Shown: positions 33,420 to 58,481, counted from the stretch's first letter. The stretch: DNA of 60,024 nt from Catajapyx aquilonaris (GCA_000934665.2 JYFJ02002274.1:1-60024), one strand, 5' to 3'. A program made the numbers and translations. Notes: a model not told the origin generated them from the sequence alone.

Positions 33420-35697
33420 CGTATACTGTAGTTAGTAGTTCAGAGGGCCAGTTTTGCCAACAAGTATTAGTAGAATTGCTAGAATTGTGTGCAATATCTT
33501 AAATGAAGATCTCGGGAGAAAAACGATCAAGGTCCACCTCAGGTGAGATTTTTAATAATTTCGAAGGCCCACATTGTAAATCTCACTTTCAGGGCCTTCC
33601 ATGGTGACCTATGATCATCGAAAATATCAGCATAAAAACTGCTAGGCGCGTGCATTTATACGCATGTTTTTAAATATAAAAGTAATATTCCGACCATTGT
33701 TGCTATGTGTACTGCTTGTAATCGGGTATCCATCAAGGCCGGCCGGTGGCACACTATTTCGTTGTAACTAATAACACGCTTTAGGATCAAAGTGTTTGGA
33801 ACTTCTATTTAAATAGATTAATTACTGGTAATATGAGGGAATTCTCACAAACACCCGCAATTTACGGGCGTTATTTTTCGCACTTGACCCTTGCATTTGG
33901 CGCGTAATTAACTAATAGAGCTTCCATAACGTCAATGTGCTGCTGGTGCGACCTGATTTCGAAATGTATTCATGACAATCCAGTTTAATTAGAGTAATGG
34001 GAATGACACGAATTGTGCGAAAGTTGTAATTGTGTGGCGGGTAATATAAACTTGAGCATATCGGGCTTGAATAGTGTGCGGGGGGGGGGGGGGNGGGGGG
34101 GGGTACGAGCAATGAATTTTCGTGGAACAATAGGACATTGTGGCAGCGACACACGTCCAATTAAGCAGAGTGTTGATTAATGGCTGCATCTGGCAGGATA
34201 AGCACATTCTTGGATTATATCCGAAATTCGGGTAAATATTGCTATTGACGTCACAGCTTGAGACATGAGAGATTCTTCCTGCACTCTAAGAAAAATGGCA
34301 TTTGCTTCCAAAACCTATTTGTTTCATCAAAGGCCAATTTTATTAATAACTCGTGTATTTTGTTTAAGATGAATGGTACGTTTTAAGCGTTAGTGGGTGT
34401 AAGCCTCTCTAAAAGGTCTCGATGGCGCCGGGTGTCACCCGACTATGTCCTGGAGTCGTGGCAGCGACAAATGCAAGTAGAGCAACAATGCATTATTCAC
34501 TCCTCTTTTGTATAATCAGACAAGTTGGGACCCTTGTTTGCCAGACTTGATTTCATGGTGACTGAAACATGAGGGACCGATGACCCGAAGAGGGGTCAGA
34601 CAAAAGAATTAAGAAGCTTGACTTGGATGTCCATATATAATTTTTTGAGATAGAATTTTCCTGTTGATTAAATCTGTGCAATCACATGCTGGGATAGTAC
34701 AAAGTTCGCATTCAACGGACCGTTCATCTGAGTGCATCGCTAGGATGATGTCCTTGAGTAAAGTATTGGCCTCGGGGTACTTGGTCAAGCACACGCAGTA
34801 GGGACCTCTCGCTTTTCCTTGTTCGATGTGGTGTGTATTAATTAGTTTTTTTCGTGACATACGTCAGAGCAGTTGATGTTTATACCCATCACTGAATACT
34901 GCGAATTTGTAGCATTATTAGAAAAGGGTTAGCCATTTTTAAATGCATGTTTTGCATTCACTTTTTGGGCACTTGGGGGGGGGGGGGGGNNNNNNNGGGG
35001 CGAATTGGCAAAAGTTGGAGCATATGTATTGAGAGATGACATGATGAAAGAGCCGGGCAGGAAAGGTTGCAACTTGCCCTTGATGTTCACCTCCCGGTGA
35101 TGTTGGCAAGTGTTCATTTGGATGTCACTCAGCTTATGATGCCATATTATCACCTGGGGATTGTATAGGAGTATGGAGTAAAGCCAGCAATGCTACAGTT
35201 TACAGTCATTTCAAAATGTGGGCAAAATACTTGCTGATCGCATAGTTCACTGAGAACGGATATACTGTGTAGTATGGATTGATAAGCGGAGATGGAGGAA
35301 GGAATGAGGGGGTGATAGGGTAATCAGAGTTCCGCTGCTCCCAAAAGTATCCTGCATGCACCGCTGCGTATTTCAGATGCCAGGAAGTTGAAATGTAGGG
35401 CCGCCTTGCATGAATAGCCATCTGATGAAGGGCTGGGCCCGCCACTGTTCTTTTTATTATGGGGCACAACCAGCCCTGCCCTGTATAAATTGGGAGATAT
35501 TTCTGTTTAGACATTAGAGGGTGTGTGATGTTTGAATTTGTGAATTTTTACACTGTAGAGAGTGTGGGAACAGTTACAGCATTACTGTATTTTTGTTGAT
35601 CTTTCTTGCAGATATGACTTTCTAAAGAAGTGAACCTCAGGCTTCCTCACTGCACGTACTCAGCACTACAATCCGCCCTTCCAAGGAAATATCAGAG

Positions 35698-38600
35698 ATG
35701 GCCAACTTCTCAACACTCGTGTGTGTCATTGTTGCTGTTGTTGCAGCTGCATCAGCAGAAATGGACTACTCATGTGTTCCTGGAGCGACGTCTTTAGGAA
35801 GTAAGTGTAGTGCCAATGCCTGATCTGCCCAGCCTTGAACACTGTTGTATATGAAAATAGTGTTCATGCCATGCTTAGCAGAACTAATAACACTTGGCAC
35901 ATTTTTTTGTCACAGCTACAGTTCCACGTGGTACAATTGTGCTTCCTGTGGGAAGTGACTTGGAGATATATTGCCACCTCAACCCAAACCTGGACAGGAC
36001 CAGAGGCAAGAATTCTAGCGACATGAGCTTCTATCGTAACCAGGACGAGTTGCATAGGCCGCTGGTGACCCCTGTAAATAGCACCTCCATACGTTTATTT
36101 ATTTCCAACATGTCCTACTCGCACGACTCCTACACCTGCAAGATCAAGATGGAGGACAGGACTGAAGGAATATGTAGAAATGATGTGAAAGTTGCAAGTG
36201 AGTATTTGTGTTTCCTGAAACATATTCAGCATTCACATTACCAAATGTGTTTTTTCAGAGCTGCCTGAAGAAGTTTCCCAGTTTCAATGTGTGTCGGAGA
36301 ATTGGGAAAATCTGAAGTGTAGCTGGAAGAAGCCTGAAAACACCATAAAGACCGATTACAACCTCATGTTCAGGAGAATGAGGAGCCGAGTGATGTGAGC
36401 CTAACTGAATTTTTTTGCATTTTTCATATGGAAGTTACCCTTGCAATTTAGGACAGCCACTTGCATATTGATGATTAGTTTCATTAATGCATAAGGTCAC
36501 CACTACTGTTTATTTTTAAACACATGTAAACAATTTTTTTTCTCTTTTTTCATTGAGAGCACTTGAAATAAAGTTATCTGTAGGATTCAACTTACAATAC
36601 ACTAATAATTATTAACGCACTGCCTATATGATAGATTTTTTTGCCGTAATCATGCATTTGATTTAATTACGTACAATCTCTTCAAGACAACAAGAAAATT
36701 AAGTAAAAATATTATTCATTTGCCATACAAGTTACACTTATATGTAGCGTATGGCTTCAGATTATATTCACTTTCAATGACAAGGTACAAAAATATCAAT
36801 GTCCAAACCACATACTTACAGTTAACATGCATTTAAGCATAAATAATTTTAACAGGGCCATGCAGCCATGGCAGAAATAATAGGTATAAGGTTTTTATGT
36901 ACTTGTGCTTGATTGGTTGCAATGACGTAACAGTTTTGGTTAAGGGAAGTTACTTAATTGCAAGCCCAATATATTTTGTTACAATTCTCTTCCCCTTTTA
37001 CAGACATCGGAACAGTTGCGGAAAGCCATCAGATGAAATGTGCACCTGGGACCTGAGAAGTCAACCCCAATTTCCTAAAAGTGTAGAGTACCTGCTAATG
37101 GAAATGAATGCCACCAATGACTTGTACAAAAGTGGGATAATCTGGAAGTACAACGTAGATGTTTATGCAATTGGTGAGTTTAGTTAAATAATAACATCAA
37201 ATGTGCAAGTTCATGAATAATGGATAAAGCTCTTTCGCACAAATGATTTTGTTTCTTAATTGTCAAGTGAATCTTATACAAATAGGCTCCATTTTACAAG
37301 GTTTCACACTGACAACCTCTTCAAAATTACCTTAAAATTGGAAAATTGGTAACATATTTTGAAAATAGCAGAAAATCTAAACATTGACATATTGCTGCAG
37401 CGCCTCTGGGTACAAACATACTTGGTGTCTCTTTTTAAAAATGGTACATTGAGGCAGGGTCTATACAGGTTTAACTTTTCAATTTACAACCCTGGTTTTC
37501 TTGGACCTAACCCTGCCCTAAAACAGGGCCTATCTGTATACCTTTTCAAATAAGCCTTATAATGTTGGAAAGTGCTGCAGTTAAAACTGTAGAATTGTTG
37601 TGCTATTACGTTAATTAAGGTGTAATGAAAGACCACTGTTAATTTTGCTGAAGTGAGCTGGTAGTATTTGTCAGGGGTTCAAATGAATATGTTCAAGTCA
37701 TATCAGCTATTGATCCAACTAGTAAAAGATACTGACTGGTTGACGAACCCCTCCCTCTTGGCTTTATCTTGCTGGTGTCATTACATGTACGCTACCATGT
37801 ATTCCACCTTCTGACATTATAAATCACTTGCCTAATTTTACAGTGATCCCTAAAGAGCCGGAACAGCTCACTTGTGAGTTTACATCTGGGAAGAATGTTG
37901 AGCTGAGGTGGAAGACATCATGGGAACTGGCTGACTTTCCTCCAGGCCTGATCCACTGGGTTACCTATCAGTCCCAGTGGGAGCCAAAGTGGATTGATTC
38001 CGATATGAGCAACCTGGCCAAACAGAGTGAAACCTACCATCTGCCTTTGACTTTGTCTTATGCCAATAGCAACTATACCTTCATGGTTAGGAGTCGATCA
38101 GCACGAGCAGAAGCCAATGCTTGGTCCAGACCAGCTAGCATCTCAGTGAAGACTCTGTCTACAAGTGAGTTGCACTTGCATGAAGAAGTAACAATAGTCA
38201 CAAGAGAATTAGGTCTCTGTGCAAAAAAGTCAGTGTTGGTCAGTTTGTGACATAGTGACGTAGTTTATTGAATTAAGTTATGTATGTGTTTTAAAAAATG
38301 GTAGTGTATTGGAATATGTCATGGGTTGCTACATAACTTCTCCTTTTTTCATGCAGTTCCAGGCAGTGCTCCCAGGACAGCCATGGGTAGCTTTGAGACA
38401 ACAGGCAAACTGCAGGACAGGAATGTGGTTGTGTTCTGGCAACAGATCCCACCCATGATGGAAAATGGAGATGGATTCACCTATTCTGTACAGGTGTACA
38501 GAAATGGGCTGCCAATGTGAGTTTGTTTGAAAGCGTCTGTAAGAATTATCTGTAAGAACCAGACTCACACTTGGCATATGTTTTTCAGTAATGTGAAACC

Positions 38601-41600
38601 CCAGACACTTACCAACACCTACGCCCTATTTAGTGGACTGTCATATGAGAGTTACCGATTTATCATTTCATCTGTGAATGATGTAGGGGAGTCAGAAGAA
38701 CAGTCAGAAGTGTATGTTCCCAGGAGAGATGAGAGTAAGTGTCCAGTACCACTGAGATTATTAAAATTTTGGTTTAGGTGTAAATAGATATTCTGCAATT
38801 TTGTCACATGTTCATTAGTAGTACATGTTTTCAACCAAAATGATAAATAATATTTCATTATTTTCTAGTGATAGGTATGCCACAGGCCTTCACGAAGATT
38901 GACTACTCAGGTGGTGTGTATGAACTCTCATGGAAGCCACCCAAGAAGGACAGTAATGAGGTCACCAATTATACAGTGTTCTGGTGCAGCAGTAAGACTG
39001 AGAGACCTTACCCTTGTGATGTGAGTGGAAATTGATAGTACACAAGTTTTGTTATGTGATGCACTGAACACCTTGTGTGTTTCCCTGTGCATTTTATGAT
39101 TGTTATTTATCATGCATGAAGCACACCATTCTAAACTCAAGTACCTATGTCATGTAGCCTACTACAGTAGCCTAATGGACTCATCTTTTTTAGGGTTACC
39201 TGAACTGGACAACAGTTGCTAGCGACCAGCTTGCAGTCAATGTGACTATGCCATCCAACCAGTACCAATTTGCTATTGCAGCCAATTCCAGGAGGGGCAG
39301 CAGTGGCATGATCTGGGCTACCTGTACTGTCATATACAACAGAGGTGCTGATCTATTAATATTTGAGTCTTAAATTGCTTTGAAATCGTAATGTAATTTG
39401 TAGAAATTTAACATATCATATTCTTCGTAATTTGATTCTAAAGTAATAGGAGGGAAAAGTTGCATAAACAATTACAGTACTTCCTTTGTTTCTTGAATCG
39501 AGTTGAATTTATGCTGGTTTTTTCTTGTAATTGTAGTGGTGAGCAAGGTACAGGATGTATGGATCAATGGGACAGGCAGCCGTGACATCAGCATTGGTTG
39601 GCGTTTGGACTGCTCAGATCGCATTGGGATAATTGAGGGTTATCGAATCAACTATTGCCCAATTGATGGGACATTAGCAAACTGCACTGGTGCCTGTACA
39701 GAACCTGAGATTAACCAAAGTGTGTCTGGGCCAGATGCTAATGGATATGTCCTCTCTGACCTCAAGCCATACACACGCTACCTTATCATGCTGTCTGTCA
39801 TCACCAGGGCGGGGGAGGGTAGAGCCAGTGACCCAGTGTGCAATACTACTTTGCAAGCAGGTAAGCTTCCCATTTTTCAAGAGAATAACATGAGAGTTAC
39901 CTTTCTTCCTTCTTTTCAGCACCGAGTGACTCACCTTATCATGTGACTATCACCAATGTGACTTCTGAGAGCCTTGTTGTATCATGGCTACCACCGAAAG
40001 AGATGAATGGTGTGCTGGACCACTTCATGGTCAGCTATAATGACCAAATTGTCAAAGTGCCACAAAATAGTTTTGGAAATGGGACATATTCAGTGAGTAA
40101 ATCCTTGAGTATTTCTGAGGTTGTACAGTCTCACTCATAAAGACTGGTACGACTCTGTGGACGAAATGTTTATCCTCAATGTCCAGCAGTGTTTCCGACC
40201 TTATTTCAATGCAACCCTATGGACAACCTTTTCTGGACCTATGGCGACTGGTGTAACCCATCCCGATCTTTTAATGACATTTTCAGTTACCAAAATGTTC
40301 AACCAGGTACAATACGTGTGTAGATTTGATGTGAATTTCCCCCCTACAATTTTTCTGCTTTGCCTTGTTTTCTCCTCTTTTTTACTTTCTTTTGATCCCC
40401 TTTCGCCCTAGAACACAAAAACATTGCTGGTGACCTAGGGGTTTGGAACAGGATTAACAATTCGTCCATAGAGTCGTACCATTCTTTATGAGCGGAACTG
40501 TGCATAATTTCCAGATAATTAATATATTGTTTACATTAAATAATCAGCAAATCATACCTGTGTTTCAGTATGTTACTATTTTGCTAATAAATTGTTTCGT
40601 TCTGAATTGGTAGACTGTGCTAGAGAAGCTGCTTGGCTACACCAACTATAGCATAAGAGTCAGGGCCTGCACTGTGAAGTGCTCACGTGACTCAATGCCG
40701 GTTTGGCAACGGACACGCATTGGAGGTACGTTCAGAATCCAAATTGTATTTTTTTACAATCCAAATCATTTCTAAGTCATATTCAATAAATCTGTTATAT
40801 TTCAGCCCCAGGGATAGTCAACATGCCAAAAGTGAAATTTGAGAACTCGTCAATGATTTTGGTGATGTGGGGAAGCCCCAGCTATATAGGAGCTCCACAA
40901 CTCAGTGGATATGAGATCAAATTGATAGCACGTGATGGGAAGGAAAATAAGTCCCATGTGCATTACATCTCAGGTAACAAATATGCCATTCTTAAAGATT
41001 GTATTCCTCTTGAGTGATCTTCATTTTCAGTCTGGAAAGTACAGAAATTGCCTTCTTTGTAAAAGGGACACTCCACTCAAAAAACAAGTTTGGCTCTAAA
41101 AATCGGGCAAAAAAATCCTGAATCCGAAGGTGCAATCCGGTTTTCGCTACACGGAACGGTAATACCAGGGCGAGGGGTCAAAGTGGGGAAATTCAAATAA
41201 TGCGCTAGAAGCTGTCAGTCCGCCAGCGACGCCCTCAGGACCCTGGGAACTGGAGGGCTGCTCCCGCCTGCCCGCGCGCTTAGGCCCATCTCAGAGCGGT
41301 GCAGCCCTCCAGTTCCCCTGTTCCCCGCTTGGCGGCGCCGCTCATTAGCAAACGACACCTCACCCTGGAATTACCGTTCCACGTAGTGGAAAACGAATTG
41401 CACCGTCGGATTCAGGATTTTTTGCCCGATTTTTAGAGCCAAACTTGTTTTTTGAGCGGAGTGTCCCTTTAATGATACATCAATGCAAGTCTGTTAGGTG
41501 CACTTTATGGCTTGATAAATGATGATAGTTTTATACTGTGCATTGAACTTTACGTTGCATGGTTTGATTTAAAGTCAAGTCAGATAAGTGATTTTAGAGT

Positions 41601-44600
41601 ATTTGAAAATGGGTAGGTTTTATAGCTTTTATAGGAGTTGCAAGTTTAACTTGAGGAATAATTTTAAAGAAACGTAAATGTTTTGTTAAGTTTGTTATTG
41701 TACTACTTATGGAGTACCCATTACATTTTATCTACATAATGTCAGTTATTTGTACGTTTGGGTTATCAGAAAAATGTGTGAATATCGGATGTGTGACCTG
41801 ACCTAAAATTACTGTTGATAGGGTGACACAGTTTAGCCTTCGTTGATTGCACCTTTTTTTGTATAATGGTCTTATGGAATGAACCATTGAACCTCTGCCC
41901 TGAAATTTCACCAGCGTGGATCTGAGAGTGATTAGCCCATGGGCATTTTACATGCTAGTAGTACACTGCATTATGAGAAGTTTGTAAACTAATTATCTCA
42001 AACTGTGAAACCATGTACACCTGTAAGTCCAGGTGATAGTTGGTCATCCCTTTAGGAAAAATTTGTATTGTACTGCATACTTCCCCAAGGGATATCATAA
42101 TTAGTGGTGCAGGGGTAGGAATTTACAATGCCAAAGCATTGAGTGATGTTTAATTTAGAAATAATTGATTGCAGTTTAAGATATAACGTCCATGCCTAGT
42201 GATTGAGGTTTCTGCATTTCCCCCATTTCTCTTCTCGCAGGGGACAAACGCCTTGTGTACTTCCCGATCCCGGACTGCACCAAGGAGAACTCCGTGAAGA
42301 CATACAGCTTCCAGGTGCGAGGGGTTAATAAAGACCCCAACTCTGATTATCCTCCCTTGACTGGACGGTGGTCAGCTGAGCAAGAAGGAAACTGCTATGC
42401 AGGAGGTAATTCCATTCCCATCATAATTGCCCCTTGGCTCTTCCACAACGAACATGAGGGTGTCATGGCCACCCTCGAGGCAGAGCCAGGCCTGGAGGTA
42501 GAAAGGTGGCGACAGGATAAGGTTATATACCGGAGGGGCGGAAAGGTAGTTGGAGGGGTAGAAGTCAACAGAACGGAAACTTATCGGGACCAATACATTG
42601 TGGTTGAGAGTAGTGGCAAAAAAATTAAGCCAGAATCATAAAATGAAGAACCATTTTTATTTCAAGGTCAGCAGCATTTCTAGAATAAGCTTATTATTTA
42701 TTCATGATGGAAAATAGTATTTTTAAGTTATATACGATGTCAATCATTATTCCAGTAGGCCACGAAGTTAGATATGTGCTTTTTGTTCTTGTTTAGCAAT
42801 AGAATTAAATTTTAGTTTTTTCGTCGAATTGTGCTTTTATTATTCATTCTAGGCCTTATCGATTATGTTCTCAGAATAAATTAACCCCAATAAAATACAT
42901 TACTAAACCATGCAGCACCGTTGTCTTTATTATAGCTTGGATGTAGCAGCTAAGTTCAAGTCGATCTTTCAGGCAAATTTTAGACTAAATTGAGATGGCA
43001 TACAAGGTAAAATGGCACCTACTTTCGCATTGGATTAGAGCTTAAGTAACGGCAAAGGTAAACACATCAGTGCATTGAGTGCAATAGTATGGGGTATTTT
43101 CAGTTTCGATCTAACATAAATTAAAAGATTTAAGTGCATTGCGCAGTGACACGTTGTTTTATAACTTAGCCAGATTTATCTTAGGCCATGTTGACGCATG
43201 TTTTTGAACAATATGAAGTTCCTACCTGCTTATCACCCCTAATTCTGTGCTCTGTCATACTCTTACAGGCTTGAAAGCCATCCAGATCCTCATCTGGGGT
43301 GGAGCTGCTGTCGGAACCCTAGCGATCCTCCTCCTCGTGGGCTTTGTGGCTGGAAGGTAAGCAGAAAGCGATTGCAACTTTCACTATTTCCACTGATAGG
43401 CTGCACTTTTACTTACCGACTGGGATGTTGGTGCCACGCTGCCCCAGTTGGGAGTGTGTCGTGACATCACCAGGCACTGCAATATGTCATTACGGAGGGG
43501 CTGTCATTAGCGAGGTTCTGAGAAGCACAGTGTCGTAAATACATTAATAGGTGGTTAAGTAACAAGTTAGGGCGGGATGACATACCATGTAAATTGCCGG
43601 GTTCTCACAATTTGTGCCAGGAGCTAGTGCTCGTAGGAGGTGACTGTGGAGGCGTCACTTGTAAATGCTTCTCTTCTCTTTCTGTCAGCATCACTGGCCA
43701 CCTTTTTTTCTGTGTGTCCTTCAAAGATTCCTTACCCAGAATGTTGATGACCTGCAGGAGGTCAGATGATTAGCGCGACCTCACACGCTTATGTCGCAAA
43801 AAGGCTGAAGTTTTTGTGAAATTCCAATCACGCGTTTCCTAGAGAAAGTGACATCATTACTTCTGTTTGAGGCTGTTTAGCTACAAAAAATGTTGTTTTC
43901 ACTGAGAATCTCATTAGGCAATCCATATAAAAAAAAGAACGCAAATTACAGTGATTGGCTAGTAACATTGGCAAGCGCCCCAGTACTCAGTCACACTACT
44001 TCCTCTGAGGGTGAAGGCCTGATGAGGTATGCAAGAGCAAGAGGCCAGGAACCTTTTTCTTTCTCCTCATGTCAAAGCACTTCCAGGTAGGGGGGAATCT
44101 GGAATTCCTGGAAAAGGGAACAAACTTGGAAGAGAAAGTGGGAAAGGGGGAATTAGGGGAAGAAAAAAGGGGGAGGGAAGAAGGGGAGGTAGGGCATCTG
44201 GGACCTTCCTGGAATCACACCAAGCCAGTACTGTACAGGGAAGGGCACCCATCTGTTAATGAGTAGTGACAGTGTGACCTTTTCTGGAAATGGTTCAGAT
44301 TACTAGCAGATGGCATTGATTGTATGGGGCTGTTTCAGGAATTGGGGTTTTTCCGGGGTTTTTCACTTCTGGTTCTCTTTCTTAGGATGTGGAGGAAGTG
44401 CAAGGAAATGAGGGATGTGGAGGTGAAGCTGCCACCTGGCCTGGCACCACCTGAGGTGAGTGTTATTCATTAACGAATCAGTAAACAGATTTTAGTGTAG
44501 TTCATTGCTTCTTATTTACCAAGAACATGCAATATTATAAGGTTTTCATTTTTCAGGATACGCTTGGAGAACTGAAGACTTCATTCATGCCGGAGCATCG

Positions 44601-45874
44601 TTTTGATTCGTCCCTCCTGTACAACCGGCTCCATTCTCAGTGCTCGGATGATGACCGAGAACGCCACATGTCTGGTGACACTGGGTGCAGCATGTATGCC
44701 ATGGATGATGAGCTCCTTCTGAAGGGCAAAGAAGAGAATCCCAGCCGAAACCCAAGTGGAGATTCTAGTGGATGCGTCTCAGGGCATGACAGTGTGTCCA
44801 GCTCGCTGACAACTGGGACGCAGTTGTCCACTGACTCAGGGACTGAAGCCGATCGCCATCCACCACCTTCACCGGATGTGTTTACCTGGGATGCTGCAAC
44901 TGGCAGTCCATCACTGAGGCTGCGCAATCCATCCAGGGGTGCTGGAGCGGAGGACTGTGGTGATGATGCACCAGACTACATCAAGATGGGATTGGCTCCT
45001 GGGAACAGGTCAGCAGATGACAAGGTGGAGGTGGCGTCATCGTCAAGCACCCCAAACTTAGATCGGGCGGGCTGTGGAGAGGATGCCAACAGCATCGTCA
45101 CAGCCTGCCCCACAAACCTGGTGGCACAACCCCAGCGATTGCACCGAGACTCCACCGGATACATAAGCATGCCGAGTAGCCAGGAGTCCATCCCTGGAGA
45201 AGGTTACGCCAAGGTTGGAGTGGCGCCGGAGGCAGGAAGCGCCGGATATTCCAAGGTGAGACTGGATGGAGCCATGTCATCTGATAATAATGTGTTGTGT
45301 AATAGTCATATTTGGCATTAAAGTGGATAAGTGATAGGAAATTACTGTCATAGTGACATGTATCATTCAAGCACATGTCATCATTACAAGAATGTCATAC
45401 AGTTATTGCATCATTTTGACCACTTCCATCATTGCTTGTTATGTACCATGCATATCTAATTAATTTTTTTTACTTCTGAAGGTGGCTCCAGCATCATCAG
45501 GCTACGTTGCACATCCTGCATTCCTGCCAGTGAGCAAGGCTGGAGGTGGATATGTGACCTTGGGGACAACATCTGCCAACCCTGGGACTACAATGCCCTC
45601 GGTGGATAACCCCCCAAAGACATGCCATGAGGTCAACTCTTACTGCAAGGTGGGCATTGATGATGCTACACCTGAAAGTGCTGACGAGGTCCAAGACTTT
45701 ACAGAGATCGAAACTGAAACATTGCCAGAGCCATCACCTTCCCCAAAACATAACACAGGTTACGTTCAGTGGAAGGGATACATGCCACACTCAGTTGTGG
45801 CTTCTCGTCAGGGTGAGGGAGACAGTGTTACTAACACGGACGAAGGGACCTACTGCTCAGCTGCCGTTAGGTAG
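35698..45874 (+). CDS. dome: Cytokine receptor domeless (JAK/STAT receptor; 18 coding exons, ~1270 aa)
   Basis: Exons 35698-35800, 35916-36197, 36259-36394, 37004-37173, 37844-38164, 38357-38516, 38589-38734, 38869-39020, 39194-39344, 39537-39860, 39920-40092, 40614-40725, 40806-40973, 42241-42405, 43269-43356, 44386-44455, 44557-45255, 45482-45874 (3813 nt, open). Signal peptide, Ig-like domain, CVSENWENLKCSW module, WSxWS-like NAWSRP, FN3 repeats, TM (43269-43356), box1-like VKLPPGL, SGDSSGCVSGHDSVSSS..STDSGTE block and many GY motifs. Confidence 0.92.
41064..41468. mobile_element. Kolobok/T2-type MITE with ~115-bp TIRs in a dome intron
   Basis: AGGGACACTCCACTCAAAAAACAAGTTTGGCTCTAAAAATCGGGC... 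versus ...GCCCGATTTTTAGAGCCAAACTTGTTTTTTGAGCGGAGTGTCCCT. Right flank TTAA, left flank TAAA; AGG/CCT ends. Confidence 0.85.
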
Positions 45875-47064
45875 ACTCAACTTGTGAATGCTAAGCTAAC
45901 GTTCGGTGTTTCTTCAATGGTGCTTTATGGGACCTCATATTAGGAGGGCGACAAAAGAGAGGTGCTGCATCAGCCTTGCAAGAAAACAAGAATGAGGTAC
46001 TTATGGGGACCTCACATCAGGGATGTGCCGAGGGGAAAGAAGACTGACTGCTGCATGTGGTTTCTTGCCCCAGTTACCCGTCGTACCTCTTTGTAAATTT
46101 TTTAAAACTTAACAGCGGTCCACTGGTGAAAAAGTGGGTTGCACTGTGGGGTGGTGCTCGGTGCCATTTTAAGTTTCCCAAGCTACTGAGGAAACAGTTT
46201 TATTTCTCCCAGAACGGGTTGTGTGCAAGGGTTGGGCATGAGGGGGGAGGGGAGTGTATTTTTCTACTAAGCGGCCACCCTGCTTATATTTTGAGAGAAG
46301 TGGAAAAATATATGAGCTAGGACCACTTTCCCTAGTCAGAGGAGGTGATCAGTCTCATGTCAGATGTGCGTTGTACAAAATACATCCACCTGTCATTAGT
46401 CTGTGAATTTGTAGCTATGGATCATAGGTGTTTGTGTTAAATTGACTGTGTTGGATTACTCCCTCCTTCATTCCAGAATTGCCAGGCCTGTTTGTTGTTG
46501 TGATTCACAAATCCATCGAACACCTGCGAAATATTGTTCGCATACCTGATGATTCAAACTCCTGGCTTGGAGAGGTCATTCTCCATTATTTAATGTTATT
46601 AAGTGTTTATTCTCTAGGACAACGTACAGTAGTTGTTGGGCAAAGATGTTAAATTTGAATTACGTGGAAGTCTGATTCATGTTAAGCGTCAGAACTTTTA
46701 AAATTTTAACGTGGACTGAACTGAATGTAACAAGCCAGGTTTCTGAGCAAACAAATGATGCATTTTAGTTTATTTTAAATTTAATTTCTTTGTCTTCATC
46801 TTGGAAACAAGACTCGGAAGGGTGTAGGTGATGAAACCAGGCTGAATCTCGAACTATTGTGAACTGAACCATAATGTTATACTATTTTTCACTTGACCAA
46901 TGGGTCATGAAACCCGGTGTCTTGATTGTTGCCTCAAAAACAGGTGCCTCATTGGTCATACTCACCTGGTTGAACATGTGTAGCTACGTGATTATACATA
47001 CACAGCTGTTTTAAGTGATGTTTTCGTAGATTCAATGTCTATTCAAGGATAATGTGGAGTACAA

Positions 47065-47070
47065 AATAAA
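47065..47070 (+). terminator. Probable dome polyadenylation signal
   Basis: AATAAA about 1.2 kb after the stop codon, followed by a GT/T-rich tract (CTGTCTGTCTTCTTGTTT). Confidence 0.6.
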
Positions 47071-47119
47071 AGTATGACTGCTTCACCTGTCTGTCTTCTT
47101 GTTTATAATGCTCTTCACA

Positions 47120-47565
47120 GTGAGCCAATTTTTTTCATTAAATTCCGCAGATAGTGATACGCCAACGAGTTAGCAGATAAATGACAGATATAGCCTTGCC
47201 ATAGATATTAAAGGCTAATATCTGTGAGCCTTGCTTTTATCAATGTTAATACTGCGGTAGCAGGTTGGTAGATACTTCATTTCAGGCAACATTGTGCAAC
47301 AGGTCATGTCTCATTTTTTGATATTGCCGTTTGGGAGTACCTTCCTCATTACTTCAATCATCATGGACAATGTGATGCTGGAGTGGACTTCGTGATGATG
47401 CTGAGGATTACTGTTCTGGTGTGTTTGATTAGATGCTGTTGTGGATTGGGCTCATGTCACTTGGACAAAGGAGGTAAGCTATTATTGAAGGTATGAAGGT
47501 CATATGATTTTTGCGGGATGTTCGGTGGGGTCTGGGGATTCTCCCTAGGATTGATGGGTTTCCCC
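47120..47565 (+). promoter_or_regulatory. Putative promoter and first-intron enhancer of the dome paralog (GATA, RUNX, kappaB motifs)
   Basis: Eight GATA cores in 47149-47275 (AGATAG 47149, AGATAA 47175, TTATCA 47237 fit WGATAR), TGCGGT at 47253, and kappaB-like GGGGATTCTCCC (47534) and GGGTTTCCCC (47556). Confidence 0.45.
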
Positions 47566-50500
47566 TTTACCCAGTAACAATTTAAAATTCTGATGAAGTT
47601 GTGGGCTTGCAGACTACTGTGTATATTTTATTCTAGAACCAATCCAGGGTCCAGTGAAGCAACTGGTGGGAAGCAGCTTCAAAATCACTTGCTCAGTGGG
47701 CCAACAAGATGAAGGAAAATCAAGTAATCTCACATTTAGGATATCAGGTGATATTGGCACAACAGTTGAATGGCATGAAGGATTGAGCAAGTTCCTTTTA
47801 GTTCAAAATGCCAGTCTCTTTAATGGTTCCGTTGATTGCGTACTCAATGGAAGCATGTCTGAAGAAGTCTGTCACATTGATGTCCGAGTCGGATGTAAGC
47901 ATTGTCTAATGCCTAATACAGTGTTAATGTTTACATGTCTGTGTATGGAAGGCCATTAGCCTTTTGGTATCTTTTTGCAGATGAACCTCAGAAGCTTATA
48001 TATTTCGATTGTGTTGCACGAGATTGGAAGAAGAAGATCATGAGAGTCTGTGAATGGGAAGCACCTGAGAACACATTTCCAACCAAATACATGGCACATC
48101 TTGATTCAGGGTATGGAGCAGTAGTAACCTGACTTGTAGCTTTTGTATGATACAAGCACAAATTAATGAAACATACTTTCAGGGATGAAATTGGTGAAAT
48201 AGAGCTGGAAGAAAAACTATGTCCAAATAGTTTAAGGTACTGCTTAAACAGTACCATAAAGTATTTCCGTCATCTAGGCAATACGACGTTTAAGATTCTT
48301 GGATCTAATGAACTGAAAAGCAAAGTTACTGTAGGAACTTACTGTGTTGATTTCAGCATGCAAGGTTAGCTTGATTGTAGAGTTTGGCTGCTGCATACGA
48401 GTATAAATGAGTTAGTGCTTCATGTAAAATAACTACTGTACTTCCAGCAATTCCAGGAAAGCCTCAGGTGTTTATCCAAACTATTAACCCAAAAACTGCT
48501 CAGGTTTCCTGGAAAGCAAATGAATTATGGAAATATGTCCCATATCCTTATGAGTACAATGTTGCATTCAAAAAGTTAGGAGATCCATTGGAAACACAGG
48601 AGGTAATTTTTAATGTGCTCAGCAATTACCGTAGATCTCATGTAATATTAATAACTTCAATTTTAGATTATTCGTATGGAAAATTGTTCTAGAGATGATA
48701 ACTGCCACCACTATAAATTTCGCGAAAAAATTGCTGGACTGTCAGCGAACAGTGTGTACACTTTTGCAGTACGATCAAGATTCCGCAGAAACACAGACGA
48801 GAGGATGTGGTCAGAAGCGGCAGTCGAGCAACTGAAAACTGAATCATTAAGTAAGCCCAGTTAAAATTGTGACACAACCGAGTTTTTAAACTGTTGTTTT
48901 TTACAGAGCTATGTGAGCCTCCAAAGATCTTTCAAGATAGCTTCCAAATATTACATCAAAAGGGAGGCGTAAGAGATGTAGTTATTTACTGGGAGCCATT
49001 TCCATGTGCAGAAGAAGAAACGGGGAAGAAATATTACATTATCAGAGTCAGTGACAGGGGCAGCAACATGTAATGAGCTTACGCCCTATGTCTGCTGCAA
49101 ATATCAAAATTGCATTGTTAACATGCCTCTCTTTGCAGGTCAAAAACTGTATCTAAATCATATGCCAAGTTTGAAAATTTGAATGATGAAACAGGGTACA
49201 CATTTCTGATCAATTACGAGAGCGATGTGAGCAGGTCAAGTGGACCCGGCAAGGTCATCCTGCCCAAGAAAAGTGAACGTATGTTACGTTGTTACCAGAT
49301 GACGCATGTACTGTCCCAGATGAATTGCATGCTTTTTTCTTCTGATATAGTGCTACATCATGATTTACTCAATGCACACCTGATTAAGTACAACAAGTAT
49401 AATGGCGTGCTACTTTGGAACATGACTCAGCATCTGGAGGAGGTCTATGTTGATGTTTACACATGCGATAATTTACAGGCCAACGTATGTGAGGTAAGTA
49501 GCAGAGCTTAATCATTTTGACTGATAGCAGCTGTCGTTGTATTTTATCATTCTAGGATACTTTGAAAAGGCACCCAGTGAGACAAAACGATACAGCCATG
49601 AATATATCCAATTCATATGCAGGTGTATTTTTGAGACTTTCTTCAGGAGAAAAAAATAGTGGAATGATGCTAGTAACATGCAAAGTAGATAAAGGTAACA
49701 GGGGAGTTACAAGTCTGAAAATAACGCAAATAATATATTGGAAGGTGGTATAATCTACAGGTTCAGACGAAGCTCCAGAGTATCTCTATGCATTAGAAGT
49801 GACTAATACAACTGTGCGAGTGGCATGGAATGAGAGCTACAAGCTTTCAGGTGATCTAGACCACTTCATCATTTACTACAACAATGATGCAGTACAAACA
49901 AAACTGCAGAATCCTCCAGGAGCAAAACCTCATGCTGTAAGGGTCACAATAACTGCCAAGTGGTTAATCCATAAAACAATAATTAATTTTTTTTCCAGCT
50001 TTTGGAGGGCCTTCAGAGCTACACAACTTACAGAATAGAATTGAAAGCATGTACCTGTGTGTCATGTTCCAATAAATCACAATCCATTCTTAATGTCACA
50101 ACCCACATTGGAGGTATGTCTTGCATGGTTGTAGTTAGAAAAACTTGATATCATCTGATCATTTTAAATCAATGAATTGTGTGTAGTTCCAGGAAGAATG
50201 CATCAGCCTAATGTGACCTTAGTTAAACCAAATGTTGTGCATATAGCATGGAAAAAGCCACAGGAACCTGGAGGACCTATAGATAGATATGATATAGTTG
50301 CTGATAATGGCACTTATAACTGGACCTGTGAAGGTATGCTACATGTCCTCTCATAAGCGAAAATATGGAGTCATTATTGATAATTGCAGGAAGTATGGAA
50401 GAGATAACATTCCCATTCTGCACTGATTCAAAAGATGCAGAGTACAACTTTCGCATACGAGCTGTTAGCATTGATAAACAGCAGCATGCCAGGCTCTACG

Positions 50501-51972
50501 AAGGACCATGGTCGGAATATGTGAATCTCAGATGCTCTCCAGAAAGTAAGTGCTCAAACTGATTGCTTAGACACTTAGAGGAATGCCTGTCCACCTAGTA
50601 ACGAATATTTTTGGAGTTGGTTTGTTGCGTTAAAAAATTATTTTTATTTCAGATGGGCTGTCAGTGAATATGGTTGCTTCGATTGCTGGTGGAGTAGCTG
50701 CTGGTGTTCTGCTCTGCATATTTCTAGTAAGACTTGGATATTTGCCCATAAGGTGAGTAAGAGATTGTTGTGTCAGTGGATCTGCCTGAAATAGGAGCAG
50801 AGTTGAATACTTTGCTCTCACAGGCTCACAGCAATTTGCATTTTGGAGATGCAGTAATTCAATCATATACAATTTTACAGAGCAATTACAATCATACACA
50901 CTTGATATACTTACTTGCAGGAAGAAGATGCGTAAGTGGTCCGGAGTTCATCCTAATTTGCCTAAGGGTATGATGTCAGAATTGGTAAGTAGTCGTTCAG
51001 TCATTTAGGGCCAGTTATATGGATGAAAATTAATGCAAACTGCAAATTAATTTCCATTACAACGATAATATACAAACTGCTGTATAAATATAAATAAAAC
51101 CAATTCTTCAGTTCACTTAACTTTCATGCATGCAACTGGTCCTTGATCATAGACTTCTCTGACTTGCAGTACATCTAATGAATTATGTTTATTAGTATGA
51201 AATCAATTCAGCGAGATTACCAGATGGCCATAATGCCTCAGAGGTTGATAGCTTTGGCCTGACTAATGTGACCCACATTGGACATTCTGAAATTATCTAT
51301 CCTGAAGAAGACTCAAGTCTAATGCTTGACTATGAAGATATGAATGATGGCTTTGTAGAACAACACATTTTCACATCTGTACCTAGCAGCTCTTGGGGGT
51401 GGATTTACAAGCCACAAGATGCAGATGAGCAAGAGGAGCTATTAAATTCTCCTTACATGAAAGCTGGTATTCAACCATCAGATGACACTGTAGGTTTTAC
51501 TGTATCATCATCCAGCAACGAACAAATAAGTGACTGTGAGAGTAGTGCATGTGAAACTACTTCTGATCCATCTGGTATGGAAGAACCAAGTGGATCTCAA
51601 GTACCCAACAGCATGGTGTATGTTCCTTTGGATCATCCAATGGTGTCTCCTTCCAGTGACTCACAACCATGTTACACCAAAGCTGGAATTGCCCCTGATT
51701 GCAGCATGGACACAGGAAGTGACAGCGACAGTGAAAGGTGGATTGAATTTACTTCCCCAGCAAAGAAAGACAAAGGTCACCGAAACATCAATCCCCAAAG
51801 TCCACCAGTGATTGCTGCTCACATAATATCCACTCCCACATATTTGCCCTTGGAAAACTTTTCCCTCCCTCAAGCAGCCAGTCACAATGAAAATGGAAAT
51901 GATATGGAGATGTTCAATCTGTCTTATGTTAGAGCTGAAATTGCAGCGACTAATAGTCATGGTTCTGTGTAG
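47395..51972 (+). CDS. Diverged domeless-like cytokine receptor, tandem paralog (17 coding exons, ~1035 aa)
   Basis: Exons 47395-47473, 47637-47894, 47981-48110, 48183-48364, 48448-48602, 48667-48850, 48907-49069, 49139-49278, 49351-49493, 49556-49694, 49761-49936, 49999-50113, 50187-50333, 50390-50545, 50653-50752, 50921-50984, 51196-51972 (3108 nt, open). Signal peptide, FDCVARDW..CEWEAPEN, AVRSR..MWSEA, SGMMLVTC, LDHFIIYYN, EGPWSE, TM (50653-50752), box1-like PNLPKGM. Intron phases match dome. Confidence 0.88.
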
Positions 51973-52677
51973 TTGTCACACTGCTGAATTTCTGCTGTTT
52001 CTTATTATCTTGTTGAGTGATGGTGTGATGTGAACTTGGTAAAACCATCTCTGGTAAAACCTGAATATTTTATTGATCCCTCCCACTGTTGTGCTTCATT
52101 AGAGTGGTAGATGGGAAATAGGATGAGGAGGGATCCAATCAGAGGGTGGTGCAGGGAGGCCCGCCAGGTGGTGCATGCATCCACACCACTCTACATGTTG
52201 AGGATCGTTGAGAGTCGCCAGCCCCTCCCTCCCACCCGCCCTTCCCTGCCTCCCCCTCAACTGATGAGTGCTGAGACTCAACATGGCCGCTGCTTGAGCT
52301 TCCTCCCCCACCACACACTTCCCACCCAGCCCAGACATCCAGCCTCCCTTCCCTCCCTCTGGACTGGACCAAGAAGGAGGTGGATTTAATCCATCAGCAG
52401 ACTGTTGCTGTCGGAATCCTGTGTGTCGCCTGCAGCCAGTAGTGTGTGTATCTGGCTGCATCATCTGGGGCTGGACCACCAGACTTGACGCTGACTTGAC
52501 AGAATGGAAGGGTAGAGCACCGTCTGTGGTCACCAGGGAGGAAGAAGGGGGAAGTCCCAGCTGGTGGGTATAGGCCCAGGCACCAACTCTTGCCCACGCC
52601 ACCCTTCCTGTCCGCAGCTGAGGAGTGGCCATAAGGCACCAGCAGGCACCATCACGACATCCACAACGGCAGCTACC

Positions 52678-55423
52678 ATGGCCGTGCATGGGGGTCCGCC
52701 CCCTAAGCGGAAGGAGATCTACAAGTATGAGGCTCCCTGGCCGCTCTACTCCATGAACTGGTCTGTGAGGCCAGACAAACGATTCAGGTAATATGCCCAC
52801 TTGTCATTAAGGGCAGCATTTTGCCCATTACATATAAGCTACCATGGCTAATTTAAGAGTCATGAGCAATCCGCTTGGCCTGCGAGTCATGTGGGAGTAC
52901 TCACGGGGTGTAATCATTGGTTCTAGTTAGATTATGCATTAAAACAAAATGAAATCAAGCACATCACATAAAGGCCCATTCACACAGGCCGTCGACGGTT
53001 TTGGTTTTTGGTCGCGTTGACGCCGCGGACCAATCATGACTCATGTAAACAAGCACAACCCATTGTTTAGAGCTTGTTTACATTGGTCATGATTGGTCCG
53101 CGGCGTCAACGCAACCAAACACCAAAACCGTCGACGGCCTGTGTGAATGGGCCTGGGGAGAACGTGAGTGTCCACCTGCCAGTGCACCGACTAGTGTGTT
53201 GTACAGAAGGTGTAGGCAAGCCGTTGTTGTGAGTTATTATCAGTTTTACCGTAATGTTACAGGTTGGCTCTGGGCAGCTTTGTAGAGGAGTACAACAACA
53301 AGGTTCAAGTGGTGAGCCTTGATGAGGAGACCTCCGAGTTCAGTTCTAAGAGTACCTTTGATCATCCCTACCCCACCACCAAGATCATGTGGATCCCAGA
53401 CAGTGTATGTTGTTCTTCCAAACTTCAAGATGATCTTAGTCGTAATGACCTGTAACTTGAAGCTTCCTTTTTTTTCCACATGTAGAAAGGGATATATCCA
53501 GACCTACTGTCAACCAGTGGAGACTACCTCCGTGTGTGGCGGGCTGGTGAACCAGAGACACGCCTGGAGTGCCTCTTGAACAATGTAGGTATCTGCTCAA
53601 AACCATGCATTTTGTAATGGTAGTTAAACTAAGTACAGCACAATGAACTACTCCCGCTTATTGTGTTTTTCAGAACAAGAACTCCGACTTTTGTGCCCCC
53701 CTGACTTCGTTTGACTGGAATGAAGTAGATCCCAACCTGATTGGGACATCCAGCATCGACACTACCTGCACCATCTGGGGACTTGAGACTGGGCAGGTTC
53801 TGGGGAGAGTCAACATGGTCACAGGTCACGTCAAGACACAGCTCATAGCACATGACAAGGAGGTTTATGACATTGCATTCAGTCGTGCTGGAGGAGGAAG
53901 AGATATGTTTGCCTCTGTCGGTGAGTGAAATCCATTGACTGTGGTGTCGTTTGCAAATGAATATTATTATACAATGGTCATAAAACTAGGTTTACCAGTG
54001 CCATAAAGTTAAGAGCTTTTCAACCATTCTAACACGATCAGAATTCATTTTATATTTTGTTGTGCCAATTCTAGGGCAACGATGAAAAAATACATTAGGT
54101 TGTGTCAGGGACACAAGCCGCAGCATTTGTGGGCTCAACCTACATTATGTTTCACTTTTCTTGACTATAATGGCGGGGGCATGGAGGCGTGGATACGTCT
54201 TTAAAATCAGATCAGGGGGCATGCAGGCAAACTCGAGCGTTACAGAAAAGCTTAGGTTATAGCAGACTCGGTTATAATAGACTAACACTTTTCTCGCTCG
54301 AGTTTGCCTGCATGCCCCCGCCATGGGCCCCCTGGCAGGGCCCTGCTGTAACACTTTTCTGTAATGCTCGAGTTTGCCCTGCATGCCCATGCCATGGGCC
54401 CCCTGGCAGGACCCTGCTGTAATGCTTTTCTGTAACGCTTGAGTTTGCCTGCATGCCCCCTGATCCGATTTTAAAGACGTATCCACGTCAAAATGTCTTG
54501 GCATGTCAGGTGCTTAGAGTCATGATATGTGGACGAGTTCAAGGAAGGTTCTGGCCTTGAACTGACATGTGCTCAGCTGGACCCTGAAGGGAGAGCCTCT
54601 TTGTATTATTAACCACCTTACAGATCTGCTTAATCCCTTCTTTGTTGGGGCCAGCTTGTCTCATTACATGTAGAGCGGAAACAAATTGCACCTGCACAAA
54701 CTGTATGTGAGGTATATTAACTATTCATTTGGTATTGCTTGTATATGCTACCTCAAGGTGAAAGGAAGTTGATTGGCATAGAAGTGGCACACATGTGGTG
54801 TATTGCAACTGCAACCTGTATAGGTTGGTTATCCAATGAGCACAGTATTTTATTTTTATGCTCTACTGAACCAACCTTATTTGCATCTCCTTAATGGAAC
54901 CACCCTCATTTGATGTGATTACAACTCAAAACACTGCTTTATTATTGAGTATTAAATCTTGACATCCTCCACCCTAGGTGCTGATGGCTCAGTGCGAATG
55001 TTTGACCTCCGCCACCTGGAACACTCAACCATAATCTACGAAGACCCGCAGCACACTCCTTTACTACGTCTAGCATGGAATAAGCAGGACCCCAACTATC
55101 TGGCCACTGTGGCCATGGATGCCTGTGAGGTGATTATCCTGGATGTGCGTGTTCCTTGCACTCCAGTGGCCAGGCTCAACAACCACAGGGCCTGTGTCAA
55201 TGGGATCGCCTGGGCTCCGCACTCTTCCTGCCACATCTGCACCGCAGGAGATGACCACCAGGCACTTATCTGGGACATACAGCAGATGCCAAGGGCCATC
55301 GAGGATCCCATACTTGCATACACAGCTGCCGAGGGAGAAATCAACCAGATCCAGTGGGGTGCGACGCAGCCTGACTGGATTGCCATCTGCTACAACAAGT
55401 GCCTGGAGATACTTCGTGTCTGA
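52678..55423 (+). CDS. DCAF7: DDB1- and CUL4-associated factor 7 (WDR68/AN11/wap), 5 exons, 347 aa
   Basis: Exons 52678-52787, 53263-53404, 53486-53584, 53674-53920, 54978-55423 (1044 nt). [82 protein letters not shown] and a C-terminal LEILRV are near-invariant DCAF7 sequence. Confidence 0.97.
52973..53153. mobile_element. Near-palindromic MITE (PIF/Harbinger-like ends) in DCAF7 intron 1
   Basis: About 80-bp arms GGCCCATTCACACAGGCCGTCGACGG...TGTAAACAAGC and GCTTGTTTACA...CCGTCGACGGCCTGTGTGAATGGGCC with few mismatches; no clear TSD. Confidence 0.8.
54188..54487. mobile_element. Foldback-like element with ~64-bp TIRs and internal ~70-bp tandem units, DCAF7 intron 4
   Basis: CGTGGATACGTCTTTAAAATCAGATCAGGGGGCATGCAGGCAAACTCGAGCGTTACAGAAAAGC recurs as a reverse complement at 54424-54487. 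Internal CTCGAGTTTGCC(C)TGCATGCCC..CCATGGGCCCCCTGGCAGG..CCTGCTGT units. Confidence 0.8.
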
Positions 55424-57185: not shown

Positions 57186-57662
57186 CGTGTGATGGAGGTA
57201 AGAAAGTTTGTAGTCACTGTGGTGTTGTGAAAGGATGTTTCCCTGAACTACAAAAGCTTCATGTTATAGATAGAGCATCACTGCATATGAAAGTAAGTAT
57301 ACGGATAAAAATATTGATGCCTTCAGCCATTTTGAATTGAGGTAAAATGTTGAGTGTAGTACGTACAAGATGTCTTAGGATGAAAGTGTTCCAACAAAGT
57401 GCCTATGTTTGATTGTTATTGTTGTTGTGGATATGTGTTTGCAATTGTTATGGTTGGGATAATTTGGTGTTTATTAGAGTTCAGAGCACTGTATAGTGGA
57501 GGATGTAAGTGACTTGGCATAGCCATTAGTTAACTACATCATACACCATTGGTACAGCCACAGCTGAACAGTAAGTTGACTTCATTGTTGACAGAGGGCT
57601 GGTATTGTTTAACCCAATCTGAGAACATTGCCTTGATCGCACTCTCTCCCTCTTAATACCAG

Positions 57663-58481
57663 ATGAACCCAACTCATAGGGAACGTACAGAATACTTTCT
57701 GGCATGCCAAAGTGGTTGCCTAGAAGATGTTAAGGAGTTGGTTTTGAATAAAGGTGTGGACCCAGCATCTGAGGTGAGGGACGACTTCTGGGTGACCGGC
57801 TTGCATATGGCAGCCCAGACTGGCCACACAGACCTGGCCAGGTTTTTGCTGGACCACGGCGCTGATGTGGACGTGGCCTTGCTAAATGATCTGACCGCCC
57901 TTCACCTGGCAGCCTGCCATGGCCATGAGGACATGGCTCTGCTTCTGCTTCAGCGAGGTGCTGACCCTAGAAGGAAGGACCACTGTGGTAATACCCCTCG
58001 GGACCTGGTACCAATGAATGAGTACCCCGGGCTCTGGAACCTCCTGGCCTGGTATGAGGACCTCAGAAACACTCCTGGAGGCAATAAGCCACATTCTCCT
58101 CTAGATGACTTTCGGTCTGAATTATCCTTGAAGATCATGAGTTCCATGGATTTGAACCTGTTGCTGTCCATGCACAACCTGGATTGTGACCTGTCAAACA
58201 GCAGGCAGACTCTTCTACACAGGGCCACCTTTCTCCGGAGAGCGTACTGGGTGGGCAAATTAGGGGCCCCAAGCAGTACACCACTGTCGGGTGTTGATGA
58301 CAAAAAGAAATCATTATGCAAGATCTGCATGGAGGTGCCAATAAACAGCATGTTTCTGGAGTGTGGACACATGACCACGTGCTACACATGTGGACTGGAC
58401 ATGATGTCCAGGGAGGGGGAAGGATGCTGTCCCACATGCAAACAGAGAGTGTCCAAAGTGGTCAAGATTTTCAAGGCTTGA
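57663..58481 (+). CDS. Ankyrin-repeat + C-terminal RING (IAP/Mind-bomb-type C3HC4) protein, putative E3 ligase, 272 aa, intronless CDS
   Basis: Ankyrin motifs TGLHMAAQTGHTDLARFLLDHGADVD and TALHLAACHGHEDMALLLLQRGADP..D..GNTP; RING CKICME..INSMFLECGHMTTCYTC..CPTCKQRVSKVVKIF; splice acceptor CTCTCTCCCTCTTAATACCAG directly before the ATG. Confidence 0.9.
   Translation: MNPTHRERTEYFLACQSGCLEDVKELVLNKGVDPASEVRDDFWVTGLHMAAQTGHTDLARFLLDHGADVDVALLNDLTALHLAACHGHEDMALLLLQRGADPRRKDHCGNTPRDLVPMNEYPGLWNLLAWYEDLRNTPGGNKPHSPLDDFRSELSLKIMSSMDLNLLLSMHNLDCDLSNSRQTLLHRATFLRRAYWVGKLGAPSSTPLSGVDDKKKSLCKICMEVPINSMFLECGHMTTCYTCGLDMMSREGEGCCPTCKQRVSKVVKIFKA

Follow-up and report, generated by a model that had tools for sequence, protein, structure and literature searches.

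JAK/STAT signalling in insects is usually described as running through one signalling receptor, one JAK, and one STAT, and heteromeric receptors with two signalling chains are a vertebrate trait. Here we describe two adjacent genes of the receptor family Domeless (Dome) on a 60,024-nucleotide stretch of Catajapyx aquilonaris DNA (GCA_000934665.2, JYFJ02002274.1:1-60024; hereafter the window): gene 1, a Domeless orthologue, and gene 2, a divergent paralogue directly downstream of it. In the literature that we searched, the short and inhibitory Et/Lat (eye transformer/latran) is the only characterised Dome paralogue. As described by Fisher et al. (2016), Et/Lat is a short receptor with five tyrosines in its intracellular part and a conserved LP (Hop-binding) motif; it binds Dome, Hop, and STAT92E, binds no Upd ligand, and inhibits because ligand is not bound. 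In the same account Hop binds Drosophila Dome at its LP motif, and the substitution P925I abolishes binding. Palmer and Jiggins (2015, Table 1) list two Dome genes each for Strigamia, Ixodes, and Parasteatoda (a centipede, a tick, and a spider), and malacostracans are described as having single Dome copies (PMC5437397). No functional study of a long-tailed second Dome was found in the literature searched, which excludes most subscription journals. Our comparisons with Drosophila Dome and Et/Lat themselves follow the published descriptions, the 125 family members that we fetched including no sequence of either.

Gene 2 has an intact frame, the exon-intron plan of its neighbour, and the complete domain order of a Dome receptor down to a long cytoplasmic tail. 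The two genes are composed as follows (CBM, cytokine-binding module; UTR, untranslated region):

35698-45874, plus strand: gene 1 coding region, 18 exons, 1270 aa, Domeless orthologue
35698-35800, 35916-36197, 36259-36394, 37004-37173, 37844-38164, 38357-38516, plus strand: gene 1 exons 1 to 6
38589-38734, 38869-39020, 39194-39344, 39537-39860, 39920-40092, 40614-40725, plus strand: gene 1 exons 7 to 12
40806-40973, 42241-42405, 43269-43356, 44386-44455, 44557-45255, 45482-45874, plus strand: gene 1 exons 13 to 18
39537-39860, plus strand: gene 1 exon 10, which alone encodes a complete FN3 module, with a phase-1 intron on each side; missing from gene 2
45875-47085, plus strand: gene 1 3' UTR, with AATAAA at 47065-47070 and a presumed end near 47085
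47395-51972, plus strand: gene 2 coding region, 17 exons, 1035 aa, divergent Dome paralogue
47395-47473, 47637-47894, 47981-48110, 48183-48364, 48448-48602, 48667-48850, plus strand: gene 2 exons 1 to 6
48907-49069, 49139-49278, 49351-49493, 49556-49694, 49761-49936, 49999-50113, plus strand: gene 2 exons 7 to 12
50187-50333, 50390-50545, 50653-50752, 50921-50984, 51196-51972, plus strand: gene 2 exons 13 to 17
47395-47473, plus strand: gene 2 exon 1, with the start codon, a signal-peptide-like hydrophobic stretch, and the invariant Cys after the signal peptide (C23)
47637-48850, plus strand: gene 2 exons 2 to 6, Ig-like domain and two-domain CBM
48907-50545, plus strand: gene 2 exons 7 to 14, four FN3 modules, each over two exons as in gene 1
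50653-50752, plus strand: gene 2 exon 15, transmembrane segment, hydropathy peak at about residue 730
50921-50984, plus strand: gene 2 exon 16, juxtamembrane box with the LP motif (VHPNLPKGM)
50985-51195, plus strand: gene 2 intron 16, with AATAAA at 51093-51098 and a read-through stop 7 codons past exon 16
51196-51972, plus strand: gene 2 exon 17, 258 cytoplasmic-tail codons with 9 tyrosines (among them those in PYMKAG, CYTKAG, and YKPQ), then the stop

A beam search over GT/AG sites gave the first path for gene 2, fully open over 17 exons to the stop at 51972. In this splice-score model intron 8 had phase 0; it was replaced by a phase-1 junction (49278/49351) that restores the end of an FN3 module aligning with gene 1, and that is favoured by homology to gene 1 and to the Dome profile. 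The acceptors of exons 5, 11, and 13 were moved to slightly earlier sites picked by Dome-profile score; these are predictions, and the splicing of gene 2 as a whole is predicted from sequence alone. The final model has GT..AG at all 16 introns (32 intact splice sites) and an open frame of 1035 aa, with a terminal stop only, compared with 61 and 96 stops in the other two frames. A first-pass annotation of the window had claimed a tandem pair with the second gene starting 1.5 kb past the dome stop, an open 17-exon frame for that gene, and a list of intron phases for each of the two. All of this was recovered and lies well outside what chance would give: the distance from the dome stop to the ATG of gene 2 at 47395 measures 1521 nt, the rebuilt 18-exon model of gene 1 gives the identical list (1,1,2,1,1,2,1,0,1,1,0,1,1,1,2,0,0), and so does the final model of gene 2 (1,1,2,1,0,1,2,1,0,1,0,1,1,1,2,0). 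The ATG of gene 2 lies only about 300 nt past the poly(A) signal of gene 1 (47065-47395), and the gene 2 promoter must be very compact, unless gene 2 relies on read-through or on an upstream 5' exon.

Gene 1, the yardstick for these comparisons, runs from an ATG at 35698 to a stop that ends at 45874. Thirteen of its 17 introns (5 to 17) appear as GT..AG joints within spliced contigs of X1, the sole public run with this stretch, the kind of which is off record; because its contigs skip these 13 introns, X1 behaves as cDNA. Introns 1 to 4 were placed by splice-site search together with a gap-free full-length alignment to orthologues. An unbroken X1 contig covers 45479-47054 and is followed by AATAAA at 47065, so that the 3' UTR would amount to about 1.2 kb. 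The protein is 33 to 41% identical, from end to end, to insect 'cytokine receptor/domeless' proteins; this range takes in every one of the 125 family members fetched, none being closer. Against the profile of 10 orthologues its score is 1053 bits, and of the 206 columns invariant in them it retains 177. Its tail exon as the sole query retrieved 15 proteins, including the 'cytokine receptor' of Periplaneta and of mayflies and a sawfly 'dome', and it carries the same tail blocks as insect Dome (the VEVKLPPGL box, the serine-rich block, GYISMPSS, and others). In the Pfam scans, for which single exons of both genes served as queries, gene 1 matched fn3 at E 1.4e-10 (exon 10) and 2e-8, IL6Ra-bind at 24.6 bits, just above the cut-off of 24.3, and, more weakly, the Lep_receptor_Ig, EpoR_lig-bind, and LIFR domains; exon 10 as query for longer proteins returned none at E <= 0.001. 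With both end-to-end similarity and the conserved insect Dome tail blocks present, gene 1 is identified as a Domeless orthologue. In the tree it branches off outside the clade that unites the 35 sequences of pterygote insects (SH-aLRT 89), and the window therefore belongs to an arthropod other than the winged insects sampled.

The kinship of gene 2 with gene 1 is clearest in the positions of its introns: 15 of the 16 coincide with a gene 1 intron of the same phase, 14 of them within 0 to 2 alignment columns. The odd one is intron 5 (phase 0), which splits exons 5 and 6 in the second CBM domain and has no gene 1 counterpart; in addition the tail of gene 1 carries one intron more than that of gene 2. 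The FN3 module of gene 1 exon 10 has no equivalent in gene 2, where profile positions 530-668 are unmatched, intron 10 aligns to gene 1 intron 10, and intron 9 aligns to gene 1 intron 8; the module would have been lost cleanly, with one phase-1/phase-1 exon. At the protein level the two genes are far apart, identity being 23% along 746 aa (E 1e-21) and 27% along 263 aa, and the first-pass claim of matching intron phases despite strong protein divergence thus stands. Identity to other Dome proteins is 21 to 33%, and the best-conserved part is membrane-proximal, with 27% to gene 1 and as much as 33% to Dome proteins of bees. Gene 2 nevertheless reaches 210.9 bits (E 2.5e-66) against a profile made solely of pterygote Dome orthologues (10 sequences), and 123 of the 125 fetched Dome-family proteins match it at E <= 1e-3, the best at E 1.2e-34; its single exons match Pfam fn3 at E 0.003 to 0.005, below cut-off.

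What gene 2 has retained is not scattered at random over the receptor. It keeps 83 of the 206 columns invariant in the 10 orthologues, including structural Cys and Trp residues and L908-P909 of the LP motif; the Ig-like domain keeps 7 of 14, and the juxtamembrane region 5 of 9 (W895, V904, L908, P909, G911). Exons 2 to 6 retain C136, W141, C146, W148, C177, W253, and the S (S329) of the WS motif, with the fourth CBM Cys present a few residues off the aligned column; the WSXWS motif is a remnant only, as in Dome. The membrane-proximal W-S and Cys are also kept (W851, S852, C859). The two genes have the same residue at 80 of 170 invariant columns versus 146 of 745 others (p 1e-12), at 63 of 135 versus 113 of 542 when only the ectodomain is counted, and at 12 of 27 versus 31 of 169 in the tail beyond the box (p 0.005). 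Agreement enriched at invariant columns, tail included, is the pattern expected under purifying selection. Family similarity, CBM, transmembrane segment, and box1/LP motif all being found, gene 2 is classified as a full-length, fast-evolving tandem Dome paralogue.

Of immediate interest for its function is the cytoplasmic part. An ordered series of blocks is common to gene 1 and to the Dome tails of cockroaches, sawflies, and mayflies: the VEVKLPPGL box, the serine-rich DSSGC...SSLTS...DSGTE block, and several tyrosine motifs, e.g. PYVKMG, GYISMPSS, and GYCRVG. Behind the transmembrane segment near residue 730, gene 2 has 284 cytoplasmic residues with 9 tyrosines beyond the LP motif, and it keeps 12 of the 29 invariant tail columns beyond the box. 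Against a profile of 79 Dome tails this tail scores 10.3 bits, a value that none of 500 shuffles reaches (maximum 7.6), compared with 142.9 for gene 1. The motif Y-x-[KR]-x-G, which was picked after inspection, occurs twice in it (17 of 200000 shuffles reach two) and is found in only 27 of the 79 orthologue tails. A cluster look-up of the tail gave as nearest a growth-hormone-receptor fragment cluster (PF12772), with a score of 0.75 that lies below the 0.9 line and makes it a lead only. YKPQ was considered as a STAT site and dropped, YXXQ being present in only 9 of the 79 Dome tails and not in gene 1. The tail is, by these measures, a much-worn yet constrained Dome tail and not a latran-type stump. 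The first-pass annotation had been right in this region too: a box1-like motif is kept (the L and P of the LP motif), its tyrosine-containing tail of about 280 aa measures 284 aa, and the receptor is not truncated as Et/Lat is, given the length of the tail, its homology to Dome tails, and its preferential retention of invariant residues. The short cytoplasmic part without a Dome tail that typifies Et/Lat is not found in gene 2.

Transcript data bear on gene 2 at a single place, where a 598-nt X1 contig at 51251-51848 lies wholly inside the tail exon. It is strandless and reaches neither end of the exon, and could also be an antisense or upstream transcript from the promoter of the next gene. 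Among the X1 contigs listed, none covers 47327-50848 (gene 2 exons 1 to 15) and none joins gene 2 exons.

We think it somewhat more probable than otherwise that gene 2 is a genuine tandem duplicate of Domeless, maintained by selection, which has kept the whole receptor plan and acts within JAK/STAT as a second chain. A Domeless gene (gp130-type, class I) would have been duplicated in tandem, the copy then evolving several times faster than its neighbour while keeping a signal peptide, the Ig-like domain, the CBM with its cysteines and W-S remnant, four FN3 modules, a transmembrane helix, the LP motif, and the 284-aa tail. Its product would reach the membrane, bind JAK through the LP motif, and have its tail tyrosines phosphorylated; it would thus serve as a further chain of the receptor, working on its own or in a pair with Dome, in an activating or a dampening role. 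Several observations weigh against this reading. Only 14 of 38 invariant columns are kept in the CBM, and 17 of the 29 in the tail beyond the box are lost, with the two blocks most conserved in Dome tails, DSSGC...SSLTS and GYISMPSS, lost or blurred. The end branch of gene 2 measures 4.35 changes per column against 0.95 for gene 1 (about 4.6 times as much), and its GC content at third codon positions (GC3, 0.365) is close to the GC of introns (0.35), compared with a GC3 of 0.53 in gene 1, which would go with low expression or with weak selection on codons. We identified no orthologue; not one of the 125 proteins fetched is closer to gene 2 than to gene 1. Intron 16, the longest of gene 2, contains an AATAAA (51093-51098), and none of 13 poly(A) hexamer variants, AATAAA and ATTAAA included, occurs in the 728 nt between the gene 2 stop and the ATG of the next gene (51973-52700). 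Finally, gene 2 probably still docks JAK, to judge from the retained LP motif, and yet such binding would not prove positive signalling, since Et/Lat, as Fisher et al. (2016) describe it, binds Hop and STAT92E and nevertheless inhibits; for the same reason a long tail does not exclude a negative role.

The first of these points would suit a negative co-receptor of the Et/Lat kind, which despite its long tail would associate with Dome and, while binding JAK and STAT, take no ligand, giving non-signalling complexes. We regard this as doubtful but realistic: inhibition by Et/Lat is explained by its lack of Upd binding and not only by tail length (Fisher et al. 2016), gene 2 adjoins dome as et/lat does, and its poorly conserved CBM is accompanied by the replacement of the invariant FPPG stretch in the second CBM domain and by the missing FN3 module. 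A pure blocker, however, would not need a 284-aa tail that preferentially keeps Dome-invariant positions, and with the CBM cysteines and the W-S remnant in place gene 2 could still bind ligand. It is quite improbable, in our estimate, that the main product is instead a latran-like short-tail isoform, polyadenylated in intron 16 and ending with the LP box plus 7 residues, the long form being minor or absent. The AATAAA of intron 16 offers a conceivable route to it, as read-through meets a stop after 7 codons and no poly(A) hexamer follows the long-form stop. Against it, about 0.2 such hexamers are expected by chance in this intron (an estimate), which leaves a single AATAAA in AT-rich sequence close to expectation; the tail exon, 258 codons long, has an open frame and keeps conserved positions above background, and the X1 contig lies inside that exon. 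We give very little credence to gene 2 being a decaying or mis-modelled duplicate without function, or a set of exons of alternative gene 1 forms. Its very long branch, its GC3 near the intron level, and the fact that its tail exon found no match at E <= 0.001 among 1.84 billion representative proteins would agree with decay or a faulty model. A neutral copy at 23% identity would, in contrast, be riddled with stops, and the 1035 codons hold none, all splice sites are intact, and the retained residues concentrate at conserved columns. Nor do the exons look like parts of gene 1, which has its own stop, 3' UTR, and AATAAA before gene 2 begins, gene 2 having in turn its own start, signal peptide, and complete domain set.

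As to its origin, gene 2 is most simply read as a tandem duplicate that arose within its own lineage and then accelerated. The best tree groups gene 1 with gene 2, though with a support of only 35, and the duplicates of Anabrus, sawflies, and aphids each group within the Dome of their own lineage; Dome has thus duplicated repeatedly and independently. The search with the Dome profile covered the best 120 of 800 matches, and divergent gene-2-like proteins may sit among the other 680. Two Dome copies each are also present in Adelges cooleyi and Cinara cedri. Anabrus simplex has two full-length 'cytokine receptor' proteins of 1339 and 1335 aa with tails of 443 and 410 aa; that pair is little diverged (end branches 0.32 and 0.47), nearly all tail motifs being present in both, whereas gene 2 is far more diverged though still full length. 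In the sawflies Neodiprion pinetum and Diprion similis (P0081, P0082) we noted an 847-aa 'cytokine receptor-like' Dome paralogue with no predicted transmembrane segment, located on the same contig as the long dome and sister to the sawflies' own Dome (support 99), which may be an independent soluble or decoy form.

Set beside Dome of Drosophila and other insects, gene 2 has the same domain order, a transmembrane segment, the LP motif, and a recognisably related tail; it differs by the loss of one FN3 module, by the 123 invariant columns that it has not kept of 206, and by its much longer branch. With Et/Lat, as far as its published description goes, it shares being a divergent Dome paralogue that adjoins dome and has the LP motif at the same place after the transmembrane segment; Et/Lat is short, however, and the tail of gene 2 has 9 tyrosines beyond the box and is a Dome-tail homologue. 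With gp130 and LIFR both genes share an Ig-like domain, a CBM, an FN3 stalk, and a box1-type proline motif after the transmembrane segment. They differ in that two-chain heteromeric signalling is a vertebrate feature, any pairing of gene 1 with gene 2 being hypothetical, and in that the YXXQ STAT3 motif is not conserved in insect Dome tails. The first-pass annotation had proposed a signalling-competent second chain, possibly in a gp130/LIFR-like heterodimer, as an inference only. We consider unlikely the corresponding strong form, a two-chain Domeless receptor in which the second chain would bind JAK, be phosphorylated on its own tyrosines, and either pair with Dome or recognise a different Upd-like ligand, with a distinct output as the result; if true, it would be an invertebrate counterpart of gp130/LIFR that arose independently by tandem duplication. 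The value of the locus is moderate, as Dome duplicates, full-length pairs among them, are already known in several arthropod genomes and function here is a prediction. Gene 2 has kept some tail blocks and lost others, and as a maintained second receptor it would be a natural test of which blocks matter; it would also help to tell if cytokine receptors that are heteromeric or specialised have evolved more than once outside vertebrates.

Some other features of the window deserve mention. Within introns 11 and 13 of gene 1 (40176-40500 and 41060-41420), X1 contigs reach a depth of 43 to 62 against 2 to 8 nearby, with many variant letters, 'opposite strands' joints, and loose ends; these segments have the look of an interspersed repeat that is transcribed and has inverted arms. 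N letters occur in the window only upstream of gene 1, at 34094 (1) and 34990-34996 (7), within G/C homopolymer-like runs. Gene 2 is followed on the plus strand by a WD40 gene (52675-55423) with exons near 52675-52791, 53255-53400, 53647-53928, and 54956-55423 and Pfam WD40 matches; its N-terminus and last exon presumably resemble DCAF7/WDR68. The GC-rich 5' region of this gene (about 50% GC) begins about 300 nt past the gene 2 stop, and one of its introns holds a tandem repeat at 54295-54458 (71-nt unit, 2.3 copies, 89% matches). Further downstream, at 57657-58481 on the plus strand, an open frame of 274 codons encodes ankyrin repeats and a C-terminal C3HC4 RING (Pfam Ank_2 5e-20, zf-C3HC4_3 9e-11), and probably forms the final exon of a gene for an E3 ligase.

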